This document shows positions 34,019 through 52,212 of a DNA stretch of 64,000 bases, piece after piece. A model generated the notes under the pieces. It ran no database searches and was not told the DNA's origin. It saw nothing but the letters and a program-made list of their open reading frames with translations. The stretch covers positions 416,001 through 480,000 of the forward strand of contig CAXXYH010000003.1 in the NCBI GenBank assembly GCA_963677925.2. Direction: 5' to 3'. Source of the DNA: Spirochaetia bacterium. GTDB taxonomy: Bacteria; Spirochaetota; Spirochaetia; UBA9216. The translations under genes and the position numbers were made by a program. Numbering within the stretch: position 1 is the stretch's first letter; every line of letters begins with the position of its first letter.

Positions 34019-34972
34019 CTAGTAGCCTTTTTCAAAATCCACAGTAAAGTTCAGCGGTTTACCGGAAATATAATTTTTAAGGTTTCCAAAAATAACATCA
34101 AAAACACGATCCCGATAAGCATCTGACAGGTAAGAATTGTGAGGGGTTATTATAATATCAGCAGCATCCCATAATGGACTGTCTGCAGCCAGCGGTTCCT
34201 GTTTAAATACATCAAGAGCAGCCCCCCTGAGAACTCCTTCTTTCAGTTTAGCAAGAAGGTCTTCTTCATTGACTACAGAACCTCTTGAAATATTTATAAA
34301 GCAGGCATCTTTTTTCAACAGCGACAATGTTTTCTTGTTAATTAAATTCTCAGTCTCGGAAGTCGCAGGAATAGCAGAAACGAGAATATCACATTCAGGA
34401 AGAAGATTAGCAAGCTGAGCGAGACTGCAGCAGCGATCGAAGCCGGCAACAGCCCTCCCGCTTCTGTTGATTCCTGTAATCTCAACTCCGAAAGCCTTCA
34501 GTCTTGAAGCCGCTTCAACTGCAATCCCTCCAGTACCAAGAAAGATTATGTTCTTACCTGCAAGCTCAGATATATTCCGGTCTTCATTCCATATTTTTTT
34601 TCTCATATTATTATACATGGTAGAAGAGTTTTTAAGCAGCATGAGAATCATTGTGATAATCCATTCGGCTATTGGAATAGATGTAGCATTGCCGTTATTA
34701 GCAACAATAATACCGGCTTTTTTTATTTTTTCCCGGGGTGCCTGGTTGATTCCCTTACTGACTAGTTGAATAAATTTAAGCTTCTCAAGATTACTGATAT
34801 CAACTTTGTCAAATGGATCATAACAGATAAGAACTTCAGTGTTTCCGGGTATTTCATTTCCTGTTATTTTATCTTCATTTATATAAGCGACTTCATAACC
34901 TTCCAGCTCTATTTTACGGAAGTTTTCTCTTCCATATGGAAATGTAAATACCACTAGCGGTTTATTCTGCAT
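34019..34972 (-). CDS. D-isomer-specific 2-hydroxyacid dehydrogenase
   Basis: GTGGIA, INISRG, ALDVFKQEPL and ITPHNS motifs. Confidence 0.9.
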   Translation of the reverse strand: MQNKPLVVFTFPYGRENFRKIELEGYEVAYINEDKITGNEIPGNTEVLICYDPFDKVDISNLEKLKFIQLVSKGINQAPREKIKKAGIIVANNGNATSIPIAEWIITMILMLLKNSSTMYNNMRKKIWNEDRNISELAGKNIIFLGTGGIAVEAASRLKAFGVEITGINRSGRAVAGFDRCCSLAQLANLLPECDILVSAIPATSETENLINKKTLSLLKKDACFINISRGSVVNEEDLLAKLKEGVLRGAALDVFKQEPLAADSPLWDAADIIITPHNSYLSDAYRDRVFDVIFGNLKNYISGKPLNFTVDFEKGY

Positions 34973-36146
34973 TATTACTCCCGAAGTTCAAAATTTTGTT
35001 AAAATAATCTGCAAACCTTTCAGCTCCTGCAGTCATGGTTTCAGCTGAATTGGCAAAAGCAAGTCTAATCCAGCCTTCCGCCTCATTACCGAATGCTGTG
35101 CCCGGAACTGTCAGGACCCCGCCTTCAGAAAGAAGTTTCAATGAAAAGTCTCTCGAATTGATTCCTGTTTTTCTAATATCGGCCATTATTCCGAGAGAGC
35201 CTCCGGACTTAATATAATCAAGATTTTCGATAGAGTCGAATTTATCACAGATAATATTACGCCGGCGCTCGTATTCCCTGCGCATCTGCTCAACACAATC
35301 CTGAGAACCCTTAAGTGCTGCAGCTCCGGCATGCTGAATGAATATCGGCAGACATGAGATAAGCGCCTGCTGCATTTTATAAAATCCTGAAACTAAATTA
35401 CTGCTTCCGAGAATATACCCAAGACGCCAGCCGGTCATGGCATATGTTTTAGACAGACTGTTTGCGATTAAGACCCTGCCTCTTAATTGAGGATGCTGCA
35501 TAGGGCTGTAATGAGTTTTTCCGTCGAAGACTATCTTTTCATATACCTCATCTGAAATAATCAGAACATTGCAGCCTTCAAGCGCGTGTGCAAGCCTCTC
35601 ACAGTATTCAAAATCGATTAACGTCCCTGACGGATTATTCGGATAATTTAGAATTACAGCTTTTGTTCTTGCAGTTACAGCTTCAGCAATTTCATCAGGA
35701 TTCATTAGAAATCCGTTTTCAGAAGAAGCCCTGATACGAATTACGCGGCCTCCGAACATTCTCACCTGCCCTTCGTAGCTGGTGTAGCTTGGATCGGACA
35801 CTATGACCTCATCTCCGCTGTCAAGAATTCCTGCAAGAATAATAAACATTGCTTCGACGCTTCCTGCAGTAGCCATGACATTATCGGGAGTAAAATCGAA
35901 ACCGAACTGATCGATATACTTTGCGGCTACTGCCTCTCTCAGCTCAACAAGTCCGGATTCTGTGGAATATTTGGTATTCCCGTCACGAAGTGATTTTACA
36001 GCTGCCTCCACTATATGTTCAGGAGTAGCAAGATCCGGATCCCCGTTACACATGTTAACAGCATCCGGATATTTCCGGTACATATCAAGCATTTCACGTA
36101 TGCCTGAAGCCGGCCATGTTTTAAGTAGTGTAGAAAATTGTTTCAT
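34962..36146 (-). CDS. PLP-dependent aminotransferase class I/II
   Basis: GDPD, NYPNNPSG, SDEVYE and SLSKTYAMTGWRLG motifs. Confidence 0.92.
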   Translation of the reverse strand: MKQFSTLLKTWPASGIREMLDMYRKYPDAVNMCNGDPDLATPEHIVEAAVKSLRDGNTKYSTESGLVELREAVAAKYIDQFGFDFTPDNVMATAGSVEAMFIILAGILDSGDEVIVSDPSYTSYEGQVRMFGGRVIRIRASSENGFLMNPDEIAEAVTARTKAVILNYPNNPSGTLIDFEYCERLAHALEGCNVLIISDEVYEKIVFDGKTHYSPMQHPQLRGRVLIANSLSKTYAMTGWRLGYILGSSNLVSGFYKMQQALISCLPIFIQHAGAAALKGSQDCVEQMRREYERRRNIICDKFDSIENLDYIKSGGSLGIMADIRKTGINSRDFSLKLLSEGGVLTVPGTAFGNEAEGWIRLAFANSAETMTAGAERFADYFNKILNFGSNNAE

Positions 36147-36200
36147 ATTAATCCAATTAACAGTTTTTATCTTGATTAGAGTGTTGAATGGTTATAGATT

Positions 36201-36239
36201 ATTAGCCGGTATTCAGTTACAGCTGAATACCGGTCTAAT
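36201..36239. other. Long intra-cluster hairpin after the ECF S-component gene
   Basis: ATTAGCCGGTATTCAG-TTACAG-CTGAATACCGGTCTAAT. Confidence 0.6.
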
Positions 36240-36252
36240 AATATCCGGCAGA

Positions 36253-36876
36253 TTAAATATCTGCAGCTTCTGCGACTTTATCTTCCTTAATATACTGTTC
36301 ACCGTATTTAAGTTTTGACAGGTATCTGCTGGATATTCTTTTAACAATAAGAACAGCAACAATGAGACTGAGAATCTTGTCTGCGCTTTCTGTAATAAAG
36401 TGGGTAGAAAATACAGCAGTCCAGATCTTGGTTCCTGTAGCGAGGAATCCTGCAGTGATCATTGAAGTTGCATGTCCTGTCATTCCACCAAAAAGTATTA
36501 CAGTGATGGGAGCGGCAGTACATGTAGCTACAAGAGCAATAATTACACCTGAAATACCAATCTTCCACCATTTGCCCATCATGCCTTTGGCAGAAAGCAG
36601 AGCAGCGAAGATACCGATTGCCATGTTTACAACTGAGTAAGGCAGGTATACAGGGTTAAAGATTGCATTAATAGCATTGGTCAGAAAACCAGTTATGATA
36701 GCAATCCAGGGACCAGCAACAATACCTACAAGTATTGTTCCGATTACATCAAGAAACACAGGGAGTCTCAGCAGCTGGGCAAGCTGAAATCCTACAATGT
36801 TGATAGCAACACATACTGGAATAAGCAGCAGTGAAACCAGGGTGAAGTCATCCTTGAAACTTCTTTTCTTTTCCAT
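36253..36876 (-). CDS. ECF transporter substrate-specific S component
   Basis: About 6 TM segments; IPVCVAINIVG, PVFLDVIGT..GPW and E..DK motifs. Confidence 0.85.
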   Translation of the reverse strand: MEKKRSFKDDFTLVSLLLIPVCVAINIVGFQLAQLLRLPVFLDVIGTILVGIVAGPWIAIITGFLTNAINAIFNPVYLPYSVVNMAIGIFAALLSAKGMMGKWWKIGISGVIIALVATCTAAPITVILFGGMTGHATSMITAGFLATGTKIWTAVFSTHFITESADKILSLIVAVLIVKRISSRYLSKLKYGEQYIKEDKVAEAADI

Positions 36877-36929
36877 TTAATTTCTCCTCGTTATATATTT
36901 AATGCCCGTATGGACATCTATAACCATAA

Positions 36930-37877
36930 TTATTTGAATTTCGCTATCGATTTGATAACCAGATCGATAAACTTTTCTCTGTCAATTTTAAAAGCCACCT
37001 CTGCATTTGCAGGCTTTTTTGTCACGCCGTTAAAATCAACAACTGTACTGCCCAGAGTCGGTCCGTCGTTTGTATCGATTTCAACATGACAGTCAACCAT
37101 TCTGAAAATTGAAGGATCGACAATATAAGCCATGCAGCAGGCATCATGAAGGTGTACACCTTCTACCCAGTCCTCATCTGCCAGAAAATATCTGGTAGCC
37201 TTGGTGATAAAGAAATCAAGCAGATCGGCGAATATTTCTCCGGATTTTGTGCCAAGGTTCCGGAGTGACTTAATTTCATCAGGCATCATACTGGCCCGGT
37301 TTGTTACATCAAGTCCGAACATTGAAACTTTTACACCGCTTTTAAAAACTATGTCTGCAGCTTCAGGATCTACTAGAATATTAAACTCTGCAGCCGGAGT
37401 TATATTTCCTCCGAAACAGGCACCGCCCATAATGATTATCCGTTCAAGTTTTTCTTTTAATTCCGGATAAGCAAGAAGAAAAATAGCGACATTAGTAAGC
37501 GGACCTGTTGCAACCAGAGTAATTGGTTCCGGATGATTCCGGATAATATCTGCAGTAAAATCCCAGGCTTTCCCCTTGAATGCTGCTGTTGTCGGTTCCG
37601 GAAGTTCAGCACCATCAAGACCGGAATCACCGTGAATGTCGGCAGCAATCCGCAAATTTCTTGTCAGCGGTTTTGAAGCGCCGGGACATACAGTAATATC
37701 TTCTCTTTCCGCAAGTGCAAGAAGTTTTCTTGCGTTGTTGAATGTTTTTTCAGGGAGCTGATTACCTGCACAGGTAGTTATGCCCTTAACTTCTATTGCA
37801 TCATTTGCAAGGGCAATGAATAATGCTACAGCATCATCATGCCCCGGATCACAGTCAAAAATTATCGGTATTGCCAT
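36930..37877 (-). CDS. Nucleoside hydrolase (IU-NH / Rih family)
   Basis: DCDPGHDD, HGDSGL, TGPLTN, AEFN..DPEAA, GLDVT and LHD motifs. Confidence 0.94.
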   Translation of the reverse strand: MAIPIIFDCDPGHDDAVALFIALANDAIEVKGITTCAGNQLPEKTFNNARKLLALAEREDITVCPGASKPLTRNLRIAADIHGDSGLDGAELPEPTTAAFKGKAWDFTADIIRNHPEPITLVATGPLTNVAIFLLAYPELKEKLERIIIMGGACFGGNITPAAEFNILVDPEAADIVFKSGVKVSMFGLDVTNRASMMPDEIKSLRNLGTKSGEIFADLLDFFITKATRYFLADEDWVEGVHLHDACCMAYIVDPSIFRMVDCHVEIDTNDGPTLGSTVVDFNGVTKKPANAEVAFKIDREKFIDLVIKSIAKFK

Positions 37878-38698
37878 TATGCTTCCTTTAATCCTGTTTC
37901 ATTTTTTACAGCACTGATCATTTCAGTAACATCAAGAACGTTACCGGGCAGCCCCATTCGATATGCAACCCTACTGACATAGGGCTGTTTCAGCATGCTC
38001 TGTTTTAAAACATCGTGGTTCCAGAATGTTGCCCTTCTGTCTGAATCAGAGATAATTTTTTTGTTGGCCATTACAACGACTCTTTCAAAGTTCTTAACGA
38101 CAAACTCCATATCGTGTGTAATTGTAATTACCGTTTTACCCTGCTCCTTCAGGAATTTAAGTACATCTGCAAGAACTTCCATACCATAGAGGTCCTGTCC
38201 GGCTGTCGGTTCATCAAGAATGAGAACATCCGGATCATTTGCCATTATCGCTGCAATCGTTACAAACTTTCTTGTGGAGTAAGGAAGGTTATATGGATTT
38301 TCATTTAAATACGGACGTATCTTGGTAACATCAACAGCTGTGCGGACACGATTCTTAATCTCTTCGATCTGAAGTTTCATATACTTGGGACCAAAGGCAA
38401 CCTCGCTGTAAATAGAATCGTTAAAAATCTGATCATCCGGATTCTGGAAGATATACCCTACTTTTGAGGAAAGCTGAGCAACGGTATGATCATTAGTGTT
38501 CCATCCGTCAATTACAACTTCACCTTCCTGCGGTTTTAAAAGTCCATTCATCAGCTTAACAGTAGTTGTCTTCCCTGCACCGTTCTGACCGACTATTGCC
38601 AGGAATTCACCTTTGGCTACTTCAAGATTGATATTCTCAATCGCAGTAAAATCATTTGGATATGTAAAAGTTACATTCTTCAGTTCAATAAAACTCAC
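37877..38698 (-). CDS. ECF transporter ATPase (second copy)
   Basis: GQNGAGKTT, FQNPDDQ, LDEPTAGQD and THDM motifs; GTG start at 38698. Confidence 0.9.
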   Translation of the reverse strand: MSFIELKNVTFTYPNDFTAIENINLEVAKGEFLAIVGQNGAGKTTTVKLMNGLLKPQEGEVVIDGWNTNDHTVAQLSSKVGYIFQNPDDQIFNDSIYSEVAFGPKYMKLQIEEIKNRVRTAVDVTKIRPYLNENPYNLPYSTRKFVTIAAIMANDPDVLILDEPTAGQDLYGMEVLADVLKFLKEQGKTVITITHDMEFVVKNFERVVVMANKKIISDSDRRATFWNHDVLKQSMLKQPYVSRVAYRMGLPGNVLDVTEMISAVKNETGLKEA

Positions 38699-39555
38699 AG
38701 TACAGCCTCTTTTGTCAGTATTTTTTCCATCACGTTTATGCATTCATCTTCCGTGATCGCTACATCATCTACAGGCAGACCGCTGTTTTTGAGTGCAAGA
38801 CAAAGCTGTGCAAACTGTGGAATGGCAGTATTATGCTCAAGAACATTCTCGCTGGAGAGAACCTCCTTAGCAGGTCCGTCCATTACAATCTCACCATCAT
38901 CAAGAAGAATAATATGATCAGAGTACTCAGCAACCAGCTCAATCTTGTGTTCAACAAGTATGATGGTTTTACCCATTTCTTTCATAAGCTTGATAGTCTG
39001 AAAGACCTCTTCAGTACCGATAGGATCAAGCTGTGACGTAGGTTCATCAATTACAAGGACATCAGGTTCCATAACAAGGATTGATGCAAGAGCTACACGC
39101 TGCTTCTGTCCGCCGGAAAGAGCAAAGGGGTCTTTGTCTTTTAAGTATTCAATCTGCAGAAACTCGAACATCTTTTCTACACGCGCCTTAATTTCCTCAG
39201 GATCAACACCGAGGTTTTCAAGTCCGTATGCTACTTCTTCAAAAACTGTACCTTTAATACCGCTTATCTGAATAAAGGGATTCTGAAAGACATAGCCGAT
39301 TTTCATAGCAAGCTCACCCATACTCAGCTCACTCATGTCCTGACCGTCAAGAATAATCTCACCGTTCAGCTCACCCTTGTAAAAGTTGGGCACAAATCCC
39401 CTTAATGCGCTGCATAATGTTGTTTTACCACTTCCGTTACAGCCGATAATTGAACAGAACTCACCTTTTTCAATTGAAAAATTCAGGTTCTTGAGAACAT
39501 CGCCCTTGCTGGTCGGATATTTGTATGAAAGGTTTTTAACTTCTATAAGAGCCAT
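38695..39555 (-). CDS. ECF transporter ATPase
   Basis: GCNGSGKTT, FQNP, LSGGQKQR and DEPTSQLDP motifs. Confidence 0.92.
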   Translation of the reverse strand: MALIEVKNLSYKYPTSKGDVLKNLNFSIEKGEFCSIIGCNGSGKTTLCSALRGFVPNFYKGELNGEIILDGQDMSELSMGELAMKIGYVFQNPFIQISGIKGTVFEEVAYGLENLGVDPEEIKARVEKMFEFLQIEYLKDKDPFALSGGQKQRVALASILVMEPDVLVIDEPTSQLDPIGTEEVFQTIKLMKEMGKTIILVEHKIELVAEYSDHIILLDDGEIVMDGPAKEVLSSENVLEHNTAIPQFAQLCLALKNSGLPVDDVAITEDECINVMEKILTKEAVL

Positions 39556-40298
39556 AATGCAATCCTCCCTGCGATAAGTCCTATAAGAATAATAAGCATG
39601 ACAATTTTGAGCGGCTTGTCGGCTCTTGTAAGTTCGATTTTATGAATCCTCGTTTTCTTGACCGGAGCTGTAAAAGCCCTTGATTCAAGTGTGATGGCTC
39701 TTTCTTCAGTATTGGCTATTGATGACAGAACCAGCGGCCCTAGCATCGGTATAAAGGCCTTTATTCTGACCATCAGACTGCCTTCGGTTTCAACACCTCT
39801 GGCCCTCTGGGCATCCATAATAACCGTTGACTGTTTTTTCATTTCAGGAATCATCTGCAGTGTTGCAAGAATGACGTAGGTTGCAGTCGGTGAAAAACCA
39901 TTCTGCTCAAGAGCAAGAACGAAATCTTTCACTTCGGTGATCCTGAAAAAGAGAACGAAAGAACAGGCTATTGCAAGAACCCTCGAAGACATCTTGAACC
40001 CGAACTGGATTCCTTCATTAGTAATTCTGAAGATTCCCTTTCTCCATACTTCATCCACTCCAGGATAAAAGAACATCTGCATTACAAGAATCAGGATTAC
40101 CAGAATCAGAATTGATTTCCTTGAAAACTTAAGATAATCCCTCAGGCAGCCTGCCATTGCAGCAATTACCGCCGCTATTAAAAAGCAGGAATAGGCATAA
40201 ATGTAGCTCGGAATAATTACTGAAGACACAGCTATCAGCAGGGCGAGATACAGCTTGGTTGTCGGATAAAGCTGAAGAACAGCATTATTTTTACTCAT
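39543..40298 (-). CDS. ECF transporter transmembrane T component
   Basis: AQRARG and ESRAF Arg motifs; start at ATG 40298. Confidence 0.9.
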   Translation of the reverse strand: MSKNNAVLQLYPTTKLYLALLIAVSSVIIPSYIYAYSCFLIAAVIAAMAGCLRDYLKFSRKSILILVILILVMQMFFYPGVDEVWRKGIFRITNEGIQFGFKMSSRVLAIACSFVLFFRITEVKDFVLALEQNGFSPTATYVILATLQMIPEMKKQSTVIMDAQRARGVETEGSLMVRIKAFIPMLGPLVLSSIANTEERAITLESRAFTAPVKKTRIHKIELTRADKPLKIVMLIILIGLIAGRIALWLL

Positions 40299-41115
40299 CA
40301 GTCCCCTCTTTTTTATACTTCTCTGCTGTTTGCCAGCATGTAGTAAATTCAACATTTTCAAAAGATTTTATATGCTTAATAAGATTATCCAGAACTTTCA
40401 TTCTTGCCGGGCGTCCAATCACCTGCGGGTGGCAGGTAAGAATGAAACAGATGTCTGAATTTTCTTCTTCCATAAACTCTTCATACAGGGCATCAAATTC
40501 AGCAATCCAGAATTCCTGCACAGCAGAAACCGGCTGTATCGCCTTACCCGGAATTCTTACCGTGTAAAGCCAGAAGGCTGCATCATCGAGTACCCAGTGA
40601 ATTGGAAGTTCAACGATATTCGTCTTGCGCTCAAACACCTGAAGATGCCCTATACGGTCTGTATGCATCATATTGCTTGAATACTCAAATCCTATATCAA
40701 GAAGGATATCCAGTGTATTTTCACTGAACTCCCATGCTGGAGATCTATAACCTTTAGGCTTCTTTCCAGTCAGCTTTTCAAGAATCTCATTGGTTCTTGT
40801 AAGCTCTTCCTTTTCTGCATCAGCAGAAGGAAGTTTGTCCGGATATGTATGGCTGTAACTGTGATTGCAGATCTCGTGTCCGGCTGTATCTATTTTCTTT
40901 ATCTGCCCGGGATACCTTTCAGCAATAATTCCGGGAACAAAAAATGTAGCAGGGACTTCATTTCTTTCAAGAACTTTCATTATTCTAGGAAGCCCTTCAA
41001 TAATTCCGTAAGTTCCAAGAGAGCGGGTAACAGGAAGATGATCAAGCTCACGGGAAGCCCAGAGTGATTCTCCGTCGACATCAAAGGTAAGCATTACGGG
41101 CATTTTTTTCTTCAT
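40291..41115 (-). CDS. CE4 polysaccharide deacetylase family, PuuE/HpPgdA-like
   Basis: TFDVD, ATFFVPG, HSYSH, YRSP, ELPIHW..DD and CHPQVIGRPAR motifs; no signal peptide. Confidence 0.85.
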   Translation of the reverse strand: MKKKMPVMLTFDVDGESLWASRELDHLPVTRSLGTYGIIEGLPRIMKVLERNEVPATFFVPGIIAERYPGQIKKIDTAGHEICNHSYSHTYPDKLPSADAEKEELTRTNEILEKLTGKKPKGYRSPAWEFSENTLDILLDIGFEYSSNMMHTDRIGHLQVFERKTNIVELPIHWVLDDAAFWLYTVRIPGKAIQPVSAVQEFWIAEFDALYEEFMEEENSDICFILTCHPQVIGRPARMKVLDNLIKHIKSFENVEFTTCWQTAEKYKKEGTDE

Positions 41116-41136
41116 AATATTCTTCTCCCTAAAATC

Positions 41137-42962: not shown

Positions 42963-42972
42963 TAAATAATCC

Positions 42973-44253: not shown

Positions 44254-44745
44254 TTAACTCTCCTGCAGTCCACTTTTAGATTCACGGATAATCTTCACTG
44301 TATCCTCAATCAGACGGATAGTGATTGCAGCAAACGAAATAGGTAGAACCGAATAAATCGCCCACTTCGGAATTTCTGTGATTGCAGTAGTCATTCCGAA
44401 TCTTTTAAGATTAGCCACAACGCCTATCAGTCCGTAAATAATAAAAACATTTGTTATCATAAAAACTATATTGGCAATTACAGCCAAAACAGTCTGTGCT
44501 TTCGGTTTTAATAAATTTGTAACTACTTCTATCTTTAAATGCTGTCTTCTTCTGGTTGCGCCTATGGCGCCCAGGTAAACTGACAATATAAAAAGTACGA
44601 TTGCAATTTCCTCAGTAAAGGAAATTGAGTTTCTGAATACATATCGTGAAACAACCTGAAGGAACAGCAGAACTACCATTACAGCAGAAAAAGATGCGGC
44701 TACTATATATTCAATATTCCCTAAAAACCATTTTAATCTTTTCAC
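44254..44745 (-). CDS. dctQ: TRAP transporter small permease
   Basis: QVVSRYVF, TEE and HLKIE motifs; 4 TM segments. Confidence 0.9.
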   Translation of the reverse strand: MKRLKWFLGNIEYIVAASFSAVMVVLLFLQVVSRYVFRNSISFTEEIAIVLFILSVYLGAIGATRRRQHLKIEVVTNLLKPKAQTVLAVIANIVFMITNVFIIYGLIGVVANLKRFGMTTAITEIPKWAIYSVLPISFAAITIRLIEDTVKIIRESKSGLQES

Positions 44746-44777
44746 AAGATTCTCCTGTTCTTAATTCCCAAATATTT

Positions 44778-44800
44778 GCCGGCAGGAATATCCTGCCGGC
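44778..44800. other. Hairpin between dctP and dctQ (mRNA stabiliser or partial terminator)
   Basis: GCCGGCAGGA-ATA-TCCTGCCGGC. Confidence 0.6.
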
Positions 44801-44809
44801 TTCAAAAAT

Positions 44810-45910
44810 CTATTTAAGTCCGGCAGCGGTAATAATGCTGTCGAAATATTCAACGCCGATTGACTCTTCCATTTCGGGCCATGCAGTCATTGCCTTTTCC
44901 TGGAACACTTTCAGTTCAGCTTCTGAAAGTTCATACACTTCAAGGATTCCCTTAAGCTTAAGAAGATATTCAGCTTCTGCGTTTTTTACTTCGTTAAGAG
45001 TAAAAGCTGCCGCCTCTGCTGAAGCCTTGTCAAAGGCTGCCTTAACATCAGCAGGAAGCCCCTGGTAGAAATCTTCGTTTACAGCCATAGTTCCCACTGC
45101 TGAAAGGTGGTTTGTGATAGTCAGGTACTTCTGAACTTCTGCAAACTTGTAGTCGTAGATAGTTGAAAGCGGGTTTTCCTGACCGTCAACAACCTTCTGC
45201 TGAAGAGAGGTGAAGAGCTCACCGAAAGAAATCGGAGTCGGTGAACATCCGAGAGCCTTCATACCGGCAATGTGAAGCGGGTTGTTCTGAACCCGGATCT
45301 TAAGACCCTTCATATCATCCGGAGTCTTAACTGCATTCTTACTGTTTGTAAGCTGTCTCATACCAATAGGAGCATAGTAAAGAGGTCTGAGGTTCGTATC
45401 TTCAAGGCATTTCTCAGTCATTATGTCACCTACTTCACCGCCAAGAAGTTCCATTGCGTTATCCATGGAAGTGAAAAGGTAAGGAACGTCAAAGGGCTGG
45501 AAAGCATTTGTAAGCTCGGCAAAACTTCCAAGGGGCCAGTCGGTCATTTCAAAAGATTCATTCTGAAGACCGCCAAGTATTGCATCGGTACTTGTACCAA
45601 GAGTTCCGCCGAGATAGTACTGAATCTCAACCTTATCACCGAGTTCTGTTTTTAGAACCTCAAAGAATTTCTTGAAACCTCTCATATAGGGGTGATCATC
45701 AAGGTTCCGGCTTGTTGAAGCGTATCTGAGGACAATTTTGTCCGGATTATCTGATTCTGCAGTAATGAAGTCGGTTACTGACATAGTTTCACCGGCTGCT
45801 TTTGCCTCGCTGCCTTCAGCAGATGCTGTTTCAACTTTTGCCTTCACACAACCGCTGAAAATCAATGCCGCTGCAACTATTGCTGCAAATAAAATATTTT
45901 TTTTCTTCAT
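44810..45910 (-). CDS. dctP: TRAP substrate-binding lipoprotein
   Basis: Lipobox FSGC; GLKIRV (carboxylate-binding Arg); ELFTSLQQKVVDGQENP. Confidence 0.92.
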   Translation of the reverse strand: MKKKNILFAAIVAAALIFSGCVKAKVETASAEGSEAKAAGETMSVTDFITAESDNPDKIVLRYASTSRNLDDHPYMRGFKKFFEVLKTELGDKVEIQYYLGGTLGTSTDAILGGLQNESFEMTDWPLGSFAELTNAFQPFDVPYLFTSMDNAMELLGGEVGDIMTEKCLEDTNLRPLYYAPIGMRQLTNSKNAVKTPDDMKGLKIRVQNNPLHIAGMKALGCSPTPISFGELFTSLQQKVVDGQENPLSTIYDYKFAEVQKYLTITNHLSAVGTMAVNEDFYQGLPADVKAAFDKASAEAAAFTLNEVKNAEAEYLLKLKGILEVYELSEAELKVFQEKAMTAWPEMEESIGVEYFDSIITAAGLK

Positions 45911-46015
45911 CTTGTATTCCTCCAAGTTAAATTATTAAAAAAGTAAATACTTCTGTTTCCTAATTTATAAGTTCCGCTCTTCTCCTCCTAAATTTAGGTT
46001 AGTTATATAATCTGC

Positions 46016-47944
46016 TCATGCATGAAGCTTTTCTGCCAGCCAGCCAAGATTTAAATCATACAGCTTGCCCCTGGACGGAATGCCTTTATCATCCCACCCT
46101 CTCATCTCAAAAAGATCTTTTATGCCGTCGGCCAGATTCTTTTTATCTACCGCATAATAATTGGAATGTTCATTTGCAAGATCTTCATGGCTCCTCTGTG
46201 AAAGAGCATCTTCACTTGCTGCAGAACCGTGCAGTATATTAAAGGCACGTCCCATATTTTCAGCTCGTTCTCCGGCTTTCATAATTTCGTAAAGGCTTGT
46301 ATATTCCCAGCCTGTTGAAGCACGTAAAAGTTCAACAACCGTATTAAGGCTTATTACTCCTCGTGGAGCAAATACAAGTATGCACATACCCGCACAATTC
46401 TGAAAGCTGGTCCATTCTGAAACAGTTTTAACATTACGGGCCTTTTTCCAGGAAACTTCTGCAGGACTTATGGGTTCGTAAATCCCGATACCGCTTAGTT
46501 TATCCAGAACTATTCCAGGATTTGATATCATTGTGTCATGAACTGTGTACATGTGGTCGGTAGCATTGGCTGCAGTAGAGTATGCAAATGCAAGACCGGT
46601 TTTTGTCCGTGCATCGTGAAGAGCGTATTCCTGCTTTCTGCTCGTATTAAGATAGGCTTTGCTGCCTTTCCCAATCTTCTCAGCAGCTCTGAATGAACCT
46701 TCAGCAAGCAGAGATGAAAAGTTATCGGCCCGCATGGCTATTCTTTCAAGGAGAGTTAATACTGCGTACGAGTTTCCGAATTCAAGTCTAAGTCCATTGG
46801 TAAATTCTGTATCAATCAATCCGTTTTCAAAACATTCCATTGCAAAAGCAATAGTTCCGCTGACAGAAATAGTGTCCATGCCGAAACGGTTGCAAAGCTC
46901 ATTGGCTTTTGAGATAAGTTTTAGATCGGCCATCATGCAGTTTGCACCGAATCCTGCAATTGTTTCATATTCAGGACCGCCGAAAGCCGGATCAATCGAA
47001 AGTGAATCGTCGCTGACATCTACAACACGCTTACATCTTACAGGACAGGCAAAACAGCCTTCCCGCTTGCTCATGATAGTCTCTGCAAGTTTCTGCCCGG
47101 TAATTTCTTCTGCGTGTGCATTCTCACCGTATCTAAAATTCCTTGACGGAAACATACCTGCAGCATTAAGTGTGGAGATGCCGCCCGATGTGCCGAAGTC
47201 AAACAGTCCACGGCTTAAGGGTTCATTCTTGTAAACAGCCAGATATTCTTTTCTTAAATCAGATATCTTTTCAGGATTTGCGGTTTTTATCTCTCCGCTG
47301 CCCTTTACTGCAATTGCCCTGAGATTCTTTGAACCCATAACCGCGCCCATTCCATTGCGTCCGTTATAATGTTTTAGATTATTGGTTATACAGGCGTACT
47401 TAACCAGATTTTCACCTGCAGGGCCAATCTGAAGAACAGAGGCTTTCTGTTCACCAAGCTCATCTCTTATCAGCTGCTGAACCGTACCGGTTTCTTTGCC
47501 CCAGAGATCAGCTGCATCATTAATCTCAATATCAGAGTCGGCAATGCTGAGGTAAACCGGTTTTTCCGCTTTTCCTTCTATAATAACCGCATCCCATCCG
47601 GCCTTTTTAAGTTCTGGGCCCCAGAAACCGCCCGCTTCCGACTGGCCGAAACCGCCGGTAAGGGGTGATTTTGCTCCTACGGTATACCTGGGTGTTCCTG
47701 CAATTGGTATACCTGTTAAAACACCAGTAGCAAAAATCAATTTATTTTCAGCACCTAATGCATCTGCATCAGGAGATACTTCATTTAAAAGATAATGAGC
47801 AATAATACCCTTCCCGCCCATATACATTCTGTAAAAGGTCTGATCAGGAGTTTCTATTGTTATCTCTGAAGTACTCAGATTAACTCTGAGTATCTTTCCC
47901 GTATATCCGTAAATTTTATTCTCTTCCATCATAAAAAAAATCAT
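46016..47944 (-). CDS. aor: Aldehyde:ferredoxin oxidoreductase (tungsten/molybdopterin AOR family)
   Basis: GKILRVNLS, KSPLTG, GRNGMGAVMGSKNL, CFACPVRC, GPEYET and DTIS motifs; the start may be 47932. Confidence 0.93.
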   Translation of the reverse strand: MIFFMMEENKIYGYTGKILRVNLSTSEITIETPDQTFYRMYMGGKGIIAHYLLNEVSPDADALGAENKLIFATGVLTGIPIAGTPRYTVGAKSPLTGGFGQSEAGGFWGPELKKAGWDAVIIEGKAEKPVYLSIADSDIEINDAADLWGKETGTVQQLIRDELGEQKASVLQIGPAGENLVKYACITNNLKHYNGRNGMGAVMGSKNLRAIAVKGSGEIKTANPEKISDLRKEYLAVYKNEPLSRGLFDFGTSGGISTLNAAGMFPSRNFRYGENAHAEEITGQKLAETIMSKREGCFACPVRCKRVVDVSDDSLSIDPAFGGPEYETIAGFGANCMMADLKLISKANELCNRFGMDTISVSGTIAFAMECFENGLIDTEFTNGLRLEFGNSYAVLTLLERIAMRADNFSSLLAEGSFRAAEKIGKGSKAYLNTSRKQEYALHDARTKTGLAFAYSTAANATDHMYTVHDTMISNPGIVLDKLSGIGIYEPISPAEVSWKKARNVKTVSEWTSFQNCAGMCILVFAPRGVISLNTVVELLRASTGWEYTSLYEIMKAGERAENMGRAFNILHGSAASEDALSQRSHEDLANEHSNYYAVDKKNLADGIKDLFEMRGWDDKGIPSRGKLYDLNLGWLAEKLHA

Positions 47945-48186
47945 CCACCGCCAAAAATCGGAAAAACTTCCACGAAGTCTCCATCAGTTAAATTAACTGT
48001 ATCGTTAATATTTCTGTTTAAACCGTTAACTCTGATTAAAGCGGTATAATCTTTTTTTACGCCGCATTTCATAAGCAGGTCCTGAACAGAAAAAACATCA
48101 TCTGTTTCAAGTTCCAGAATTCCCTCCCTGTTTCCGGAAAGGAATATAAAAAATGAATAAAGCTTAACCCTTATCTTCACTGACAT
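47941..48186 (-). CDS. MoaD/ThiS family sulfur carrier
   Basis: VNG..L.DGD.V..FP..GGG with the C-terminal GG; next to aor. Confidence 0.85.
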   Translation of the reverse strand: MSVKIRVKLYSFFIFLSGNREGILELETDDVFSVQDLLMKCGVKKDYTALIRVNGLNRNINDTVNLTDGDFVEVFPIFGGG

Positions 48187-49429
48187 CCTTCAGCAATGGT
48201 ATTGTAGCTCCAGCATCGGGCATCACAAGAACCGAGGCTCTCTCACCCATTTTACCGACAGCAGCATCGAGTGCCGCCTGCAGTGACTTAAAAGGGATAA
48301 AGTTAATAGACTTTACAGTTTCATCACCCAGATCACTGACCATAAATATTTCCGCCTTCTGCAGTATCATGGCAATGGCCGCAGCCTTGTGGCCGCCTAG
48401 TACAAAATTGGATTCAATTTCAGCCAGCATTTCAGAAGGTGTTTTATCCTTCATCCATGATTCAAAGGTTTTCTCGCCAAAACCCTCAGCAGCTGATGCG
48501 GCAAGAATAATTATTCCGCCGTCTTTTACAGCATATTTGGCATTATCAAGGCCCTTTTGAGCCTGATAAAGATTTATATCTTTCGGATATCCGCCCGGAG
48601 ACGCAATTACAATATCAGCCTTTGAAGCAAACTCAACACCGTTCATCCGGTCAAGATACCTGCAGCCGTTTCTGTGAGCCTCAAGATAATGACCTGCAAC
48701 TGCTTTAACAATCTCTTTCTTATTATCAAGAATCACGTTTAAAATAAAATCAATTTTGATAAACTCACCAACCTGGTCTATATCCTGTCTTACAGGATTA
48801 TCATCAAGCCGGCCCGCTGCAGCATTCTTATTTGTCATATTAGAATGGTTGGCCTGAATAGCCGCATGACTGGAGACTCCGGGCATCAGAGCTTTTGCTC
48901 CGCCGGAATATCCTGCAAAATAATGGAACTCAATATTACCCACACAGATAAGCCTGTCCGCTTCCGCTACCGGTCTGAATATATCTACAGGTGTTCCGTT
49001 CCTGCACGCTCCGAGATTAATACAGAGGTCCATTTCTGAATCAAGCAGGTTTATTCCGCTTGAATAAACATCATCACCGGTCAGGTATTTCTTTTCATCT
49101 TCAGTATGTCTGCGGTGACTTCCCAGTGCAAAAACAATGGTAATATCACTGTCACTGACTCCTGCACTGTGAAGACGTTTAACAAGTTCGGGTATAACAA
49201 GTCTTCCCGGAAAGGGCCTTGTTATATCACTTGTAACAATCACAACAGACTCACCAGGTTTAACTATATCCTCAAGTCTTTCAGATCCTGCCGGATTATC
49301 AAGGGCATAATTAATTTCATCAGCTCCGCTTCTATCATGCACTATTTCATTGGGAATCAATGTTCCCGCATAATTTTTTTCAGGTATATCAACAGAGATA
49401 GTTTTTTTGCCGTATTTAAACTCAAACAT
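48164..49429 (-). CDS. larA: LarA-family nickel-pincer 2-hydroxyacid racemase/epimerase
   Basis: SDITRP, ALGSHR, HYFAGYSGGAK, NH and YQAQK motifs. Confidence 0.9.
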   Translation of the reverse strand: MFEFKYGKKTISVDIPEKNYAGTLIPNEIVHDRSGADEINYALDNPAGSERLEDIVKPGESVVIVTSDITRPFPGRLVIPELVKRLHSAGVSDSDITIVFALGSHRRHTEDEKKYLTGDDVYSSGINLLDSEMDLCINLGACRNGTPVDIFRPVAEADRLICVGNIEFHYFAGYSGGAKALMPGVSSHAAIQANHSNMTNKNAAAGRLDDNPVRQDIDQVGEFIKIDFILNVILDNKKEIVKAVAGHYLEAHRNGCRYLDRMNGVEFASKADIVIASPGGYPKDINLYQAQKGLDNAKYAVKDGGIIILAASAAEGFGEKTFESWMKDKTPSEMLAEIESNFVLGGHKAAAIAMILQKAEIFMVSDLGDETVKSINFIPFKSLQAALDAAVGKMGERASVLVMPDAGATIPLLKDVSEDKG

Positions 49430-50792
49430 CAGCCCAGACCTCCTCATCGGAAGGCATTACCGCTCCGTCTATCACTGTTGAAATTCGTGTAATATTCATT
49501 AAGTGTGTGTAATTAAAATTATCAGAGATAATATTGTTTCCCCATGTGCCGCATCCGAAGATAGTAGTTGGAACAAGACCATTCAGATAGCTTCCGCCGC
49601 TCATGGTAGCTCCGACCTGATTTACAAGCAGCCGGCTTACATTCAGGTTCTCACCGGCATATCTGACATGTTCATCATTTCCGGAATGTATAACAACAGA
49701 ATGTCCCATACCTTCAGCTTCTATATTCTCAGCCGCGATTGCAACCGCCTCTTCAAATGTTTCGTATCTTTTAAGTCCAATTACCGGAAACAGCTTCTCT
49801 CTGCAGAAAAGTTCCTCTTCTCCGGTGCTGTAGACTTCAATAACTATAAGCCGAACAGTCTCTTCGAGTTCAATTCCTGCATCAGAAGCAAGCTTTGATA
49901 CAGGCTGTCCGACTACCTCGCTTGAAACATTTCCGTCTTCATCGAATATCAGGTTCCTGAGTCTCAAGGCTTCATCAGAATTTCTGACGAAGTACGCGCC
50001 CTGAGACTCAAGTTCTTTTACTGTTTCAGCAAAATCATCATTATGAACGAGAATCATCTGCTCAGCAGAACTGATAATTCCGTTGTCAAAAATCCTTCCG
50101 TTTATTATTTTCTCAACCGATTCGCTTATACTGACGCCCCTGTCTATTATGCACTGCGCATTTCCTGCACCGACACCGAATGCAGGTTTTCCGCAGGAAT
50201 ATGCAGCCTTTACTGTTGTCGATCCTCCGATGGCAACAACAACATCAACTGAACTCATAAGTTCACTGCTTTTCAGCACATTAGGATCTTCTATTGTCTG
50301 TATAAGATTTTCGGGTGCTCCGAGAGTCTTAAGGTTCATATTAATAAGTTCAGCAGCATATGCGGCGCATTTTTTCGCACGCGGATGAGGAGCGATAATT
50401 ATGGAATTACGCGCTTTTACTGCAAACATTGCAATACACATAGGTGTTGTTATGGGATTGGTGCATGGTGTTACCGCTCCCACAACACCCATAGGTTTTG
50501 CTATCTTTATAATTCCGTTTACAGCATCTTCTTCCACAGACCCTACAGATTTTTTACCCTTAAGATTGTGCCAAAGCATGCTTGCAGTCCTGCGGTTCTT
50601 TTCAACTTTATCGCCGTAAACTCCCATGGAGGTTTCATCAACTGCCATGCTTGCCAGAACTTCCGCATTATCAAAAACAGTTTTTGCAATAGCTTTTACG
50701 ATTTCATCTATGTATTTCTGTGAGAATGTTTCTATTTTTTTCTGTGCGGCCGAAGCTTTCTGCACCATATCTGAAATTACATCAAATTCCAT
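49422..50792 (-). CDS. CoA-acylating aldehyde dehydrogenase family (succinate-semialdehyde DH-like); catalytic Cys reads as Ser
   Basis: PMGVVGAVTPCTNP, PHPRA, GKPAFGVGAGN, FDNGIISSAEQ, EKLFP and GCGTWGNN motifs. Confidence 0.85.
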   Translation of the reverse strand: MEFDVISDMVQKASAAQKKIETFSQKYIDEIVKAIAKTVFDNAEVLASMAVDETSMGVYGDKVEKNRRTASMLWHNLKGKKSVGSVEEDAVNGIIKIAKPMGVVGAVTPCTNPITTPMCIAMFAVKARNSIIIAPHPRAKKCAAYAAELINMNLKTLGAPENLIQTIEDPNVLKSSELMSSVDVVVAIGGSTTVKAAYSCGKPAFGVGAGNAQCIIDRGVSISESVEKIINGRIFDNGIISSAEQMILVHNDDFAETVKELESQGAYFVRNSDEALRLRNLIFDEDGNVSSEVVGQPVSKLASDAGIELEETVRLIVIEVYSTGEEELFCREKLFPVIGLKRYETFEEAVAIAAENIEAEGMGHSVVIHSGNDEHVRYAGENLNVSRLLVNQVGATMSGGSYLNGLVPTTIFGCGTWGNNIISDNFNYTHLMNITRISTVIDGAVMPSDEEVWADV

Positions 50793-50811
50793 CTCAAGCT
50801 ATTCCTTCTCG

Positions 50812-52161
50812 CTACTCTGTAACTGCTTTTATTGCTTTCTCAAGGATTTCCAGACCAACTTTAAGCTGCTCATCGGTAACAACAAGCGGCATAAGAGCTC
50901 TTACGATCTGATTATATGAGCCGGCAGCCTTGAGAACCAAGCCGGCCTTCCTGCACTCGGCAAGTATTTTATTTGCAGTTTCAGGATCCGGTTCTTTAGA
51001 AATCCTGTCTTTTACAAATTCAAGTGAAACCATTGCTCCGGTTACTCGGTAAGTTCCGATTGCCTTATACTTTTCAAACCAGTCTTTGAATGCAGCTTCG
51101 CATTTTTCGCCGATTGCCATGGCCTTGGAAGCATAGTCGTCTCTTTTTAGTATTTCGATTACTTTTAAAGAAGATGCACAGGCCACAGGATTTCCGCCGT
51201 ATGTACCGCCGATTTCACCTGCAGTCAAAGATTCCATAATCTCTTCTCTTGCTGTAACAGCGCTTATCGGAAGTCCTCCGCCCATAGCCTTTGCTGTAAT
51301 AAGAATATCAGGATAAACACCTGCCTCTTCCCAGTACTCTGTCGCAAACATTTTTCCTGTTCGGCAGTAACCGGTCTGAACTTCATCTGCTATAAGAAGT
51401 ATTCCGTATTCATCACAAAGCTGTCTGAGACCCTTTATGTACTCGATAGGAGGTACAATAAAACCGCCTTCGCCCTGGATAGGTTCGATAATTACAGCAG
51501 CAACTTTCTGAGGAAGGATGTAGTCAACAAACATATACCGCAGTTTTTCCAGATAATAATCAGCAAGCTGCTCTTCAGCGATACCCGGTTCAGCCCGGTA
51601 AGTATTAGGGAATTCAGCGCGGTGAACACCCGGTGCAAGCGGCATAAAACCGGCCTTGTATACCTGGCCGCTGGTGAGGGTCATAGCCATAAAGGTTCTG
51701 CCGTGGAAACATCCTGAATATGCGATTATATCAGTACGTCCGCTGAACTTTCTTGCAATCTTTATAGCGTTATCAACTGCCTCGGAACCGCTGTTGAAAA
51801 ATGCAGTTCTTTTCTTGAAATTTCCCGGAGTAATGTCATTTATAAGTTCTGCAAGCTCAATATACTCCGAATAGTGCAGTGTATTTATCTGCGGATGAAA
51901 GTATCTTCCAGCCTGCTCCTGTACAGCCTTGACCACCTCTTCATTGCTGTATCCGATATTCAGAGCGCCGATTCCTCCGACCCAGTCCATTATGATATTA
52001 CCGTCAAGGTCGACTATCATAGCCCCCTCGCCTCTGTCAATTACAAAGGGCGCTGCACATCCGATTGATGATGGAATGGCTTTATTTCTTCTTTCAATTA
52101 CTGCCTTTGATTTGGGTCCCGGCAGTTCAGTAACTATTTTTGGTAAAGATTCTCTAAGCAA
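50812..52161 (-). CDS. gabT: Class III aminotransferase (4-aminobutyrate transaminase-like)
   Basis: NSGSEAVDNA, FHGRT, EPIQGEGG, DEVQTG, AKAMGGG and GGTYGGNP motifs; TTG start with GGAG RBS. Confidence 0.88.
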   Translation of the reverse strand: MLRESLPKIVTELPGPKSKAVIERRNKAIPSSIGCAAPFVIDRGEGAMIVDLDGNIIMDWVGGIGALNIGYSNEEVVKAVQEQAGRYFHPQINTLHYSEYIELAELINDITPGNFKKRTAFFNSGSEAVDNAIKIARKFSGRTDIIAYSGCFHGRTFMAMTLTSGQVYKAGFMPLAPGVHRAEFPNTYRAEPGIAEEQLADYYLEKLRYMFVDYILPQKVAAVIIEPIQGEGGFIVPPIEYIKGLRQLCDEYGILLIADEVQTGYCRTGKMFATEYWEEAGVYPDILITAKAMGGGLPISAVTAREEIMESLTAGEIGGTYGGNPVACASSLKVIEILKRDDYASKAMAIGEKCEAAFKDWFEKYKAIGTYRVTGAMVSLEFVKDRISKEPDPETANKILAECRKAGLVLKAAGSYNQIVRALMPLVVTDEQLKVGLEILEKAIKAVTE

Positions 52162-52194
52162 TTAATTTCTCCAAATTATTATTCTGCAATTTAA

Positions 52195-52212
52195 TTGCAT
52201 TTTTTGTGCCAA
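52195..52212 (-). promoter_or_regulatory. sigma54 (-24/-12) promoter of the gabT-led cluster
   Basis: Minus strand TTGGCACAAAAAATGCAA, an exact GG-N10-GC spacing, about 35 bp upstream of gabT and next to a bEBP gene. Confidence 0.85.

Follow-up and report, generated by a model that had tools for sequence, protein, structure and literature searches.

A predicted sigma54-controlled mosaic operon in a Spirochaetia bacterium combines a GabT/SucD-type core with exchangeable uptake blocks

Layout of the locus and its predicted control

The locus considered here lies in a window of 64,000 nt from a Spirochaetia bacterium (assembly GCA_963677925.2, contig CAXXYH010000003.1, positions 416,001 to 480,000); all coordinates below are those of the window, and the source genome, denoted G000, is reported to be 99.6% complete. 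Between positions 34019 and 52161 the minus strand carries 18 co-oriented open reading frames (ORFs), mostly overlapping, behind one -24/-12 promoter. Families were called with Pfam and NCBIfam profiles, and the closest solved relatives were taken from the PDB. Gene content, order, families and promoter are read directly from the window. They agree with an earlier note on the same DNA, which had described 18 co-oriented, mostly abutting genes behind a single promoter of this type. All family names given in that note hold at the level of Pfam and NCBIfam, except that the CE4 enzyme is not PuuE and the aldehyde dehydrogenase is a CoA-acylating, SucD-like one. Starting from the divergent regulator, the features are the following.

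52434..54104, plus strand: sigma54 enhancer-binding activator (PAS, AAA+, HTH), divergent from the operon; Pfam Sigma54_activat 227.5 bits, PAS_9, HTH_50
52196..52211, minus strand: predicted sigma54 promoter -24/-12, TGGCAC-N5-aTGCA (TGGCACaaaaaaTGCA); single mismatch to the consensus, 34 nt 5' of the TTG start at 52161
50812..52161, minus strand: class III aminotransferase AT3, GabT-like; Aminotran_3 390 bits
49422..50792, minus strand: CoA-acylating aldehyde dehydrogenase, SucD-like (succinate semialdehyde to succinyl-CoA); called from PDB match and neighbourhood
48164..49447, minus strand: LarA homolog of the malate racemase (Mar2/LarAH6) type; NF052593 548.4 bits, cut-off 500 (equivalog passed)
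47941..48186, minus strand: MoaD/ThiS-like protein, 81 aa; TIGR01687 26.3 bits and ThiS E=6e-4, both weak
46016..47944, minus strand: aldehyde:ferredoxin oxidoreductase (AOR) family enzyme, metal (W or Mo) not readable from sequence; AFOR_N 261 bits, AFOR_C 343 bits
44810..45925, minus strand: TRAP solute-binding lipoprotein DctP; DctP 240 bits, lipobox-like FSGC
44254..44745, minus strand: TRAP small permease DctQ; DctQ 106 bits
42973..44253, minus strand: TRAP large permease DctM; DctM 373 bits
42309..42962, minus strand: Isf-type iron-sulfur flavoprotein, FMN_red fold with Cys cluster; FMN_red 107.7 bits
41137..42312, minus strand: M20 metallohydrolase (M20a), ArgE/DapE deacylase type; TIGR01910 287 bits, cut-off 217.6
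40291..41115, minus strand: CE4 amidohydrolase, HpPgdA/PuuE small-molecule clade, metal-dependent type; Polysacc_deac_1 88.5 bits
39543..40361, minus strand: ECF T component; CbiQ 75 bits
38695..39555, minus strand: ECF ATPase A; TIGR04520 248 bits, under the cut-off of 315
37877..38743, minus strand: ECF ATPase A'; TIGR04521 231 bits, under the cut-off of 330
36930..37877, minus strand: RihA-like (pyrimidine-type) ribonucleoside hydrolase (NH); IU_nuc_hydro 336 bits
36253..36876, minus strand: ECF S component, CD3073-like family; NF045596 113 bits against a cut-off of 180 (weak)
34962..36146, minus strand: class I aminotransferase AT1, aspartate-aminotransferase-like; Aminotran_1_2 217 bits
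34019..34972, minus strand: D-isomer-specific 2-hydroxyacid dehydrogenase (2HADH); 2-Hacid_dh_C 173 bits, best PDB match 3hg7 with 158.7 bits

Neighbouring genes overlap by up to 71 nt or are separated by up to 106 nt, and overlapping junctions cross the boundaries between the blocks that are distinguished below. The 2HADH gene overlaps that of AT1 by 11 nt, and the gene of the MoaD-like protein, whose C-terminus reads ...FGGG, overlaps the AOR start by 4 nt; the true start of the ECF T gene is probably downstream of the listed TTG. No convincing internal terminator was found in the operon (15 terminator-like sites versus 15.8 expected). As for the promoter, the number of sigma54 motifs with at most 2 mismatches across the whole window (22 found, 30 expected) is not above chance; it is supported by where it lies, by the single mismatch and by the form TGGCAC-N5-gTGCA kept in a relative of the same family (G010, ~77% identity), not by motif count. 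The genome also contains rpoN (408 bits, above cut-off), and the divergent activator has a Walker A motif at residue 276 and GAFSGA at residue 323, the position of the GAFTGA loop. Orthologs of this activator occupy the same position in G001, G010 and G044 (95%, 72% and 76%, respectively). According to these features the 18-gene cluster is predicted to be a real operon under sigma54 control.

A comparable arrangement is found in the GabR-controlled gab cluster of Bacillus thuringiensis, which shares the divergent PAS/AAA+/HTH sigma54 activator, the -24/-12 promoter and a GabT-like first gene. In the portion of the source cited here, GabR (PAS-AAA+-HTH) is described as activating gabT on gamma-aminobutyrate (GABA) or succinate semialdehyde (PMC4279683). 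In contrast to that cluster, the window encodes a CoA-acylating SucD-type enzyme instead of an NAD(P)-dependent succinate-semialdehyde dehydrogenase, and sixteen more genes follow.

Core and exchangeable blocks in spirochaete relatives

The neighbourhood, whose conservation the earlier note had proposed to check, is kept in part: the full cluster is found in G001, and a core with one block in each of G010 and G044. In G001 (same genus, ~95% protein identity) the entire cluster and its flanks are kept, and the comparison is uninformative. In G010 (same family, 60-91%) the regulator is followed by AT3-SucD-LarA-MoaD-AOR-DctPQM-Isf-M20-CE4-2HADH, with the contig ending just after the 2HADH homolog; the block of ECF, hydrolase, S component and class I aminotransferase is missing. 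Vice versa, G044, which belongs to a different family, has the order AT3-SucD-Isf-M20-CE4-EcfT-A-A'-NH-EcfS-AT1-2HADH behind its regulator, and lacks LarA, MoaD, AOR and the window-type TRAP genes; a different TRAP (31-36%) is located beyond the regulator. Both exchangeable blocks are present together in G000 and G001.

Thus, the earlier division of the cluster into a gabT-aor-TRAP half and an ECF-hydrolase half does not stand, since G010 and G044 each drop one block while both keep GabT-SucD-Isf-M20-CE4. The core predicted from these architectures consists of GabT-like AT3, the SucD-like enzyme, Isf, M20 and CE4, usually with 2HADH, and the putative exchangeable blocks are TRAP+LarA+MoaD+AOR on the one hand and ECF+NH+class I aminotransferase on the other. 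LarA, MoaD and AOR are limited to the clusters of the closest relatives.

The G044 cluster (L144/L145, C1 about 2899900-2913600) shows 76-88% identity for most genes and 54-57% for SucD, AT1 and 2HADH, a pattern which suggests that the cluster was transferred horizontally and that some of its genes were replaced. Among 301 sampled Spirochaetia genomes, CE4 (E<=1e-40) was detected in 6 and the ECF S component (E<=1e-10) in 29. Because the cluster occurs in few, scattered genomes, it appears to be rare and patchy and has probably moved horizontally.

In G044 an Fe-dependent alcohol dehydrogenase (Fe-ADH) gene follows the dehydrogenase, where G000 has a hemerythrin gene. This Fe-ADH is inseparable by homology from generic alcohol dehydrogenases (best match methanol dehydrogenase, 196.7 bits).

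CE4, M20 and Isf enzymes

According to PDB matches, the CE4 enzyme is closest to 3qbu (HpPgdA) and 3rxz (~140 bits), with PuuE at 71 bits. Residues D12, D14, H85, H89 and H229 are invariant in 28 sequences, and the Asp-His-His metal triad is intact, as in HpPgdA; the metal and catalytic residues of HpPgdA (HP0310) are given as D12, D14, H86, H90 and H247 in the cited part of PMC3084791. The AlphaFold2 (AF2) model (pLDDT 91) reaches TM values of 0.87-0.89 to 3rxz/3qbu (0.89 to 3qbu) and 0.83 to PuuE types, in contrast to ~0.6 or below for true polysaccharide deacetylases. The likeness of the window enzyme to the HpPgdA/PuuE clade is thus one of fold (TM 0.83-0.89), and from the match of the model to HpPgdA we infer a closed small-molecule type.

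An assignment as PuuE itself was considered and rejected: the Asp-His-His triad is kept, TIGR03212 gives 81.5 against a cut-off of 424.6, and HpPgdA/3rxz are closer. PuuE has a metal-independent Glu-His-Trp triad, and enzymes of its clade hydrolyse glutarimides and six-membered cyclic imides, as far as the quoted text of PMC11424739 goes. For HpPgdA, the excerpted text of PMC3084791 describes a closed pocket with no known substrate and lists inactivity on GlcNAc, chitotriose, N-acetyl-polyamines, N-acetyl-D-Ala dipeptides and allantoin. Since its substrate is not known, no function can be transferred to the window CE4.

M20a exceeds the TIGR01910 cut-off and has DapE (7uoi, 135.8 bits) as its best PDB match; among the best 25 of 56 NCBIfam matches it is of the ArgE/DapE type, not of the carbamoylase type. 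In Isf, C51, C54, C57 and C69 are invariant in 19 orthologs, and we take this compact N-terminal Cys motif to be the one that defines the family.

Aminotransferases, SucD-like enzyme and AOR

The top NCBIfam matches of AT3 are GABA transaminase models, all under cut-off, with GabT models scoring 441-484 bits versus ~250 bits for diaminobutyrate transaminase models. Its best solved relatives are all GabT (top PDB 4ffc, 347 bits). The aldehyde dehydrogenase passes no NCBIfam equivalog; it matches 8cei, an acetylating succinate-semialdehyde dehydrogenase, over the full length with 471.7 bits, versus 296.7 bits for acetaldehyde dehydrogenase, and its orthologs (~50% identity) adjoin succinyl-CoA-ligase-like genes in other spirochaetes. 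The AOR-family enzyme has a CxxCxxxC (4Fe-4S) motif at residue 297. As for AT1, aspartate aminotransferase models give ~300-314 bits, under their cut-offs.

The amine branch had been predicted to run from a transaminase to AOR. The GabT-like transaminase stands; given that the aldehyde dehydrogenase is SucD-like, however, the branch would consist of GabT followed by SucD, with AOR, absent in G044, as an optional addition.

LarA racemase and its cofactor supply

The LarA homolog aligns over its full length to Mar2 (PDB 6d6z) with 398 bits, and the four residues that bind the nickel-pincer cofactor (His, His, Lys and His) align with those of LarA and Mar2 and are conserved. Mar2 (LarAH6) of Thermoanaerobacterium thermosaccharolyticum, for which the cited part of PMC7583248 reports malate racemase activity, resembles the window protein in the equivalog and in the cofactor-binding residues. 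The cofactor genes are a different matter. LarB, LarC and LarE were not found in G000 with family models: PF01969 and TIGR00299 gave no match, and the best scores on TIGR00268 and NF033503 were 32 and 38.7 bits, respectively. A tblastn search with the larC-larE-larB genes of a relative (G006) gave no match in G000 either. In contrast to the Mar2 system, G000 thus has no detectable LarB/C/E, and LarA is part of the cluster only in the versions of G000, G001 and G010. The earlier suggestion of a nickel-pincer racemase is borne out for the malate racemase equivalog and its cofactor residues and left without LarB/C/E in this genome, and the predicted racemase step depends on a presumed cofactor supply.

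The pattern is not confined to this genome. G000 has 3 LarA matches and the single-contig relative G007 has 5; among 41 relatives a LarA match is present in 26 and LarC in 12, and 17 of the 26 have LarA without LarC.

In G007, G024, G012 and G031 (L016, L017, L020 and L022, respectively), LarA orthologs (~50%) co-localise with a SucD-like aldehyde dehydrogenase in 4/4 cases. The three annotated loci (L016, L017, L022) also contain succinyl-CoA-ligase-like alpha/beta genes and a 2-oxoacid dehydrogenase complex, and some have malic enzyme, a Zn-dependent alcohol dehydrogenase or AOR. These LarA+SucD loci represent a cluster distinct from the 18-gene operon.

Transporters and nucleoside hydrolase

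The TRAP set of the cluster is complete, with the DctP, DctQ and DctM genes together. Homology was also tried as a guide to the DctP ligand and gave nothing inferable: the best PDB match, 4p47, is ligand-free, and the next ones bind pantoate, erythronate, KDG and isethionate.

The hydrolase scores 386 bits on the RihA model (cut-off 433) and 309 bits against the RihA structure 4wr2, with the DxDxxxDD motif and the HLHD histidine aligned. Queuosine salvage also employs an IU-type hydrolase; the window NH is instead RihA-like and its context is catabolic. The ECF S component stays slightly under the Pfam cut-off (27.7 versus 30.7). Its homologs (43-48%) in other spirochaetes are accompanied by T/A/A' and by a nucleoside hydrolase, phosphorylase, amidohydrolase or PfkB kinase, and for this reason ECF+NH is regarded as a self-standing module for nucleoside import and hydrolysis. 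Group I ECF vitamin transporters are similar in that the T, A and A' genes of the window, all three of them clear, share one operon with the putative S gene, but the window S component belongs to the uncharacterised CD3073-like family, under its cut-off, and the context is catabolic. The literature searched contained nothing on CD3073, or on an ECF S component with a nucleoside hydrolase.

These loci with a CD3073-like S component and T/A/A' include those of G101 (L147), G123 (L151) and G054 (L148), in the last of which the neighbour is a B12-binding radical SAM gene. They suggest a family of ECF-type nucleoside importers.

Wider CE4 neighbourhoods

A total of 953 CE4 homologs with E<=1e-20 were obtained among 1380 candidates, and 80 loci were returned, chosen from 224 confirmed relatives among 310 pattern matches. 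Neighbourhoods were counted in the 34 loci with CE4 of at least 46% identity, taking 10 kb on each side; several of these are cut by contig ends. Isf with at least 40% identity is found in 26/34 loci (any match in 29/34), followed by class I aminotransferase (at least 40%) in 13, DctP/Q/M in 9 and M20a (at least 40%) in 6. The SucD-like enzyme is present in 4/34, AT3 in 3/34, and the hydrolase and ECF S in 2/34 each; LarA, MoaD and AOR each occur in 2/34, both of them close relatives. GabT/SucD-type genes near CE4 are also found in Firmicutes (L033, L036, L081).

De novo gene clustering of 33 of these loci, in which six CE4 genes were lost to the ORF filter, gives a glutamate-carboxypeptidase-like M20 in 17, an AGCS amino-acid carrier in 13, a VorB-like 2-oxoacid:ferredoxin oxidoreductase (OFOR) in 12, and butyrate kinase and PduL in 6 each. 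A typical Firmicutes operon has the order CE4-AT1-AGCS-Isf-P-loop-OFOR-ButK-PduL-M20. In G000 (C4:2087349-2089317) a P-loop (CbiA/MinD-like) NTPase gene is located directly 5' of the gene for a VorB-like OFOR alpha subunit, and the two look like a conserved unit, as in the Firmicutes CE4 operons. Because the pair is also together in G000, the P-loop NTPase of those operons was assigned to the 2-oxoacid oxidoreductase and not to CE4.

Three loci of Clostridia metagenome-assembled genomes (MAGs; L050:17880-18266, L052 and L058) contain an ectoine-synthase-family cupin (PF06339, 133.8 bits) inside CE4-AT1-Isf-OFOR operons that also include a LIV-type ABC transporter. These operons place a 'solitary EctC' in a catabolic setting; proteins of this kind have no known role as far as the cited section of PMC5924519 tells. 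More distant CE4 relatives (37-49%) are found with di-/oligopeptide ABC transporters, M20 and M28 peptidases and Amidohydro_3.

As for the nucleoside link, Treponema UBA4873 has on one strand M20-AT3(53%)-AT1-like-CE4(56%)-EcfS(39%)-EcfT-EcfA(41%)-EcfA'(40%)-NH(37%), and its sister UBA1793 has the same first four genes without ECF or hydrolase. In two Bathyarchaeia MAGs a RihA-like hydrolase is divergent from CE4(40-41%)-Isf(49-50%)-M20a(40%, above the TIGR01910 cut-off). Thus, an IU-type hydrolase adjoins CE4 in four lineages (G000/G001, G044, Treponema UBA4873 and Bathyarchaeia), with differing gene orders. The connection to nucleosides made in the earlier note is well supported in this respect, as the RihA-like hydrolase stands beside CE4/M20 in these four lineages and the ECF S family accompanies nucleoside enzymes in other spirochaetes. 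No paper joining a polysaccharide deacetylase with an iron-sulfur flavoprotein was found in the literature searched.

Genes flanking the operon and elsewhere in the window

A hemerythrin-domain gene (33526-33930, minus strand) is co-oriented with the operon and begins 88 nt 3' of its last gene; since it is kept solely in the same-genus relative, it is probably outside the pathway. Further downstream, a GT4 glycosyltransferase is split into N- and C-terminal ORFs (31979-32515 and 32593-33240, minus strand). Both pieces are also present in G001, and may therefore reflect a common frameshift or a truly split gene. Positions 29892-31964 (minus strand) encode a 690-aa fusion of a sucrose-6F-phosphate phosphohydrolase domain and an invertase/GDE_C-like domain.

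A dihydropyrimidinase/D-hydantoinase gene (TIGR02033, 516 bits versus an equivalog cut-off of 393) is located at 19878-21257 on the plus strand, alone between a gene of 237 aa and a Fur-family regulator. A second TIGR02033 match in G000 (C3:289566-290969) is beside Xdh-like Mo-enzyme genes, an amidohydrolase and a DHO_dh-family gene.

Proposed route and alternatives

We favour, at somewhat less than even confidence, the reading that this is one catabolic mosaic operon controlled by sigma54 and the PAS activator, in which a nitrogenous ring or N-acyl compound, free or as a pyrimidine-type riboside, would be unmasked by Isf, CE4 and M20 and oxidised via a GABA-type amine to succinyl-CoA/succinate. 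The TRAP system and ECF+hydrolase look like alternative entries, for the free carboxylate and for the riboside, respectively; in the latter case the RihA-like hydrolase would strip the ribose. Isf might then give or take two electrons, CE4, judging from its family, would hydrolyse a ring or exocyclic amide, and M20 would cleave the remaining acyl or carbamoyl group to leave an omega-amino acid of the GABA type. The GabT-like enzyme would transaminate it to the semialdehyde, from which the SucD-like enzyme could make succinyl-CoA and the AOR-family enzyme the acid, with reduced ferredoxin as a possible electron source for Isf. AT1, 2HADH and, where present, the malate racemase may regenerate the amino acceptor and process a side stream of aspartate, oxaloacetate and malate. 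We infer every chemical step, and the logic of a single substrate, from families and gene order. The enzyme families are all known, but their combination is not a described pathway: the literature searched yielded none that matches the whole cluster (for PuuE/M20/anaerobic, none relevant by title among the matches listed), in line with the earlier view of a sigma54-driven catabolic cluster unlike any described route.

Reductive pyrimidine catabolism has a similar formal logic, with nucleoside hydrolysis, reduction, ring hydrolysis, decarbamoylation, transamination and aldehyde oxidation. In a non-canonical form of it, the ECF system would import uridine, cytidine or ribothymidine, the RihA-like hydrolase would cleave them, Isf would reduce uracil or thymine, CE4 would open the dihydropyrimidine ring, M20 would decarbamoylate to beta-alanine or beta-aminoisobutyrate, and the GabT/SucD-like pair would yield malonyl- or methylmalonyl-CoA. 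M20-type beta-alanine synthases exist, and animal GABA transaminase also accepts beta-alanine and beta-aminoisobutyrate. Besides the RihA-like hydrolase, the recurrence of the four-gene NH-CE4-Isf-M20 unit in Bathyarchaeia and an order of reduction, two hydrolyses and transamination that parallels PydA-C agree with such a route, and a variant starting from orotate or dihydroorotate and leading through aspartate, oxaloacetate and D-malate to L-malate would fit the aspartate-aminotransferase-like AT1, 2HADH and the malate racemase. PuuE-clade relatives are also described in the quoted text as cleaving six-membered cyclic imides (PMC11424739). We nevertheless consider the pyrimidine route unlikely. 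The aldehyde dehydrogenase and AT3 best match the C4 enzymes SucD and GabT, so that the downstream steps look C4-specific; the dihydropyrimidine dehydrogenase, dihydropyrimidinase and beta-ureidopropionase families of the canonical pathway are in none of the 18 genes; and G000 already has the two dihydropyrimidinase genes above cut-off, one of them beside the DHO_dh-family gene. M20a is of the ArgE/DapE and not the carbamoylase type (best 25 of 56 matches), the metal chemistry of CE4 is that of deacetylases, and the transporters (TRAP, AGCS and LIV-type) point to substrates that resemble carboxylates or amino acids. To our knowledge, no flavodoxin-fold uracil reductase is known. A low probability is likewise given to a supra-operon of independent modules that have the promoter alone in common and no common substrate, i.e., GabR-type GABA use, malate racemase/AOR, TRAP, CE4/M20/Isf deacylation, ECF/hydrolase scavenging and the aminotransferase/dehydrogenase pair. 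Blocks are indeed gained and lost as units among G000, G010 and G044, ECF+hydrolase is found alone in other spirochaetes, LarA+SucD is found in unrelated clusters with 2-oxoacid dehydrogenase, succinyl-CoA-ligase-like genes and malic enzyme, and the CE4-Isf pair of 26/34 loci is mostly without GabT, SucD or hydrolase; as each block also occurs alone, this explanation stays viable. In contrast, the adjacency of hydrolase and CE4 recurs in four lineages with differing gene orders, GabT/SucD-type genes are near CE4 in the three Firmicutes loci as well (L033, L036, L081), and the overlapping junctions span block boundaries with no internal terminator signal.

Two further explanations appear improbable. 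An N-acetylated diamino acid or ectoine-type solute, taken up by TRAP, would be ring-opened or deacetylated by CE4 and M20 to 2,4-diaminobutyrate, transaminated to aspartate semialdehyde and oxidised by AOR or the aldehyde dehydrogenase to aspartate, with oxaloacetate, D-malate and L-malate to follow. TRAP importers for ectoine exist, M20a is of the ArgE/DapE type, AT1, 2HADH and the malate racemase would all be accounted for, and three Clostridia CE4 operons that have a LIV-type ABC transporter also encode the ectoine-synthase-family cupin, whose solitary kind has no known role in the section cited (PMC5924519). We still rate this solute as very unlikely: AT3 scores 441-484 bits on GabT against ~250 on diaminobutyrate transaminase models, the aldehyde dehydrogenase is SucD-like, and no EctC-family match above cut-off was obtained in 5/5 genomes searched (G000, G001, G010, G044, G007). 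Isf and ECF/nucleoside hydrolase would be left unexplained, and many CE4 loci come from gut or rumen MAGs according to record titles. As for a modified nucleoside with an amino-acid or amine side chain (e.g., acp3U or t6A), with transaminase and AOR as the amine arm and aminotransferase, dehydrogenase and racemase as the amino-acid arm, a genuine module for nucleoside uptake and hydrolysis is found repeatedly with CE4/M20, CE4 loci elsewhere have transporters of the amino-acid type, and the cluster has both an omega- and an alpha-aminotransferase. We give this possibility very little weight, since no enzyme indicates a particular modified base, modified nucleosides are scarce as growth substrates, and AOR, LarA and MoaD are not core, as G044, the Treponema loci and all Firmicutes loci lack them.

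Several points also weigh against the favoured reading of one mosaic operon draining a masked GABA-type amine. No compound could be named that meets all constraints, and no known heterocycle obviously gives GABA after one reduction and two hydrolyses. Neither a succinyl-CoA synthetase beta subunit nor glutamate decarboxylase is detectable in G000, the former bearing on the fate of succinyl-CoA, and with LarB/C/E undetected the racemase step may not work as assumed. The relatives are not independent, as the four spirochaete clusters with CE4 of at least 85% may be one horizontally moved unit, and the modules also occur separately (ECF+NH alone, LarA+SucD in other clusters). Most Firmicutes CE4-Isf loci carry AT1 and the 2-oxoacid oxidoreductase, not GabT/SucD, which points to an alpha-amino acid product there. 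Finally, the two Treponema loci have CE4/M20/AT3 and no Isf within 10 kb, so Isf may be a mere electron carrier.

Implications

The three spirochaete architectures illustrate cleanly how an operon can be put together from alternative blocks for uptake and added functions, and the LarA-without-LarBCE pattern bears on how the nickel-pincer cofactor is obtained. The CE4-Isf-M20 module is a testable genomic context for the HpPgdA-type CE4 clade. A bolder claim, doubtful at present, is that CE4-Isf-M20 forms an unrecognised pathway module, widespread in anaerobes (Clostridia, Spirochaetia and Bathyarchaeia), whose task is the reductive opening of a heterocycle that resembles a nucleobase and is set free from a riboside. 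Were this true, a physiological substrate would for the first time be assigned to the orphan HpPgdA-type CE4 clade; the module would be fed by the first ECF-type nucleoside importer and drained into GABA-type intermediates, and in the lineage of the window it would be joined to a LarA racemase working without the known LarBCE cofactor pathway. If the pathway were solved, an ECF S family that is so far uncharacterised would gain a function, and it would become clear how strict anaerobes draw nitrogen, carbon and ATP from a nitrogenous compound that is common and possibly nucleoside-derived.

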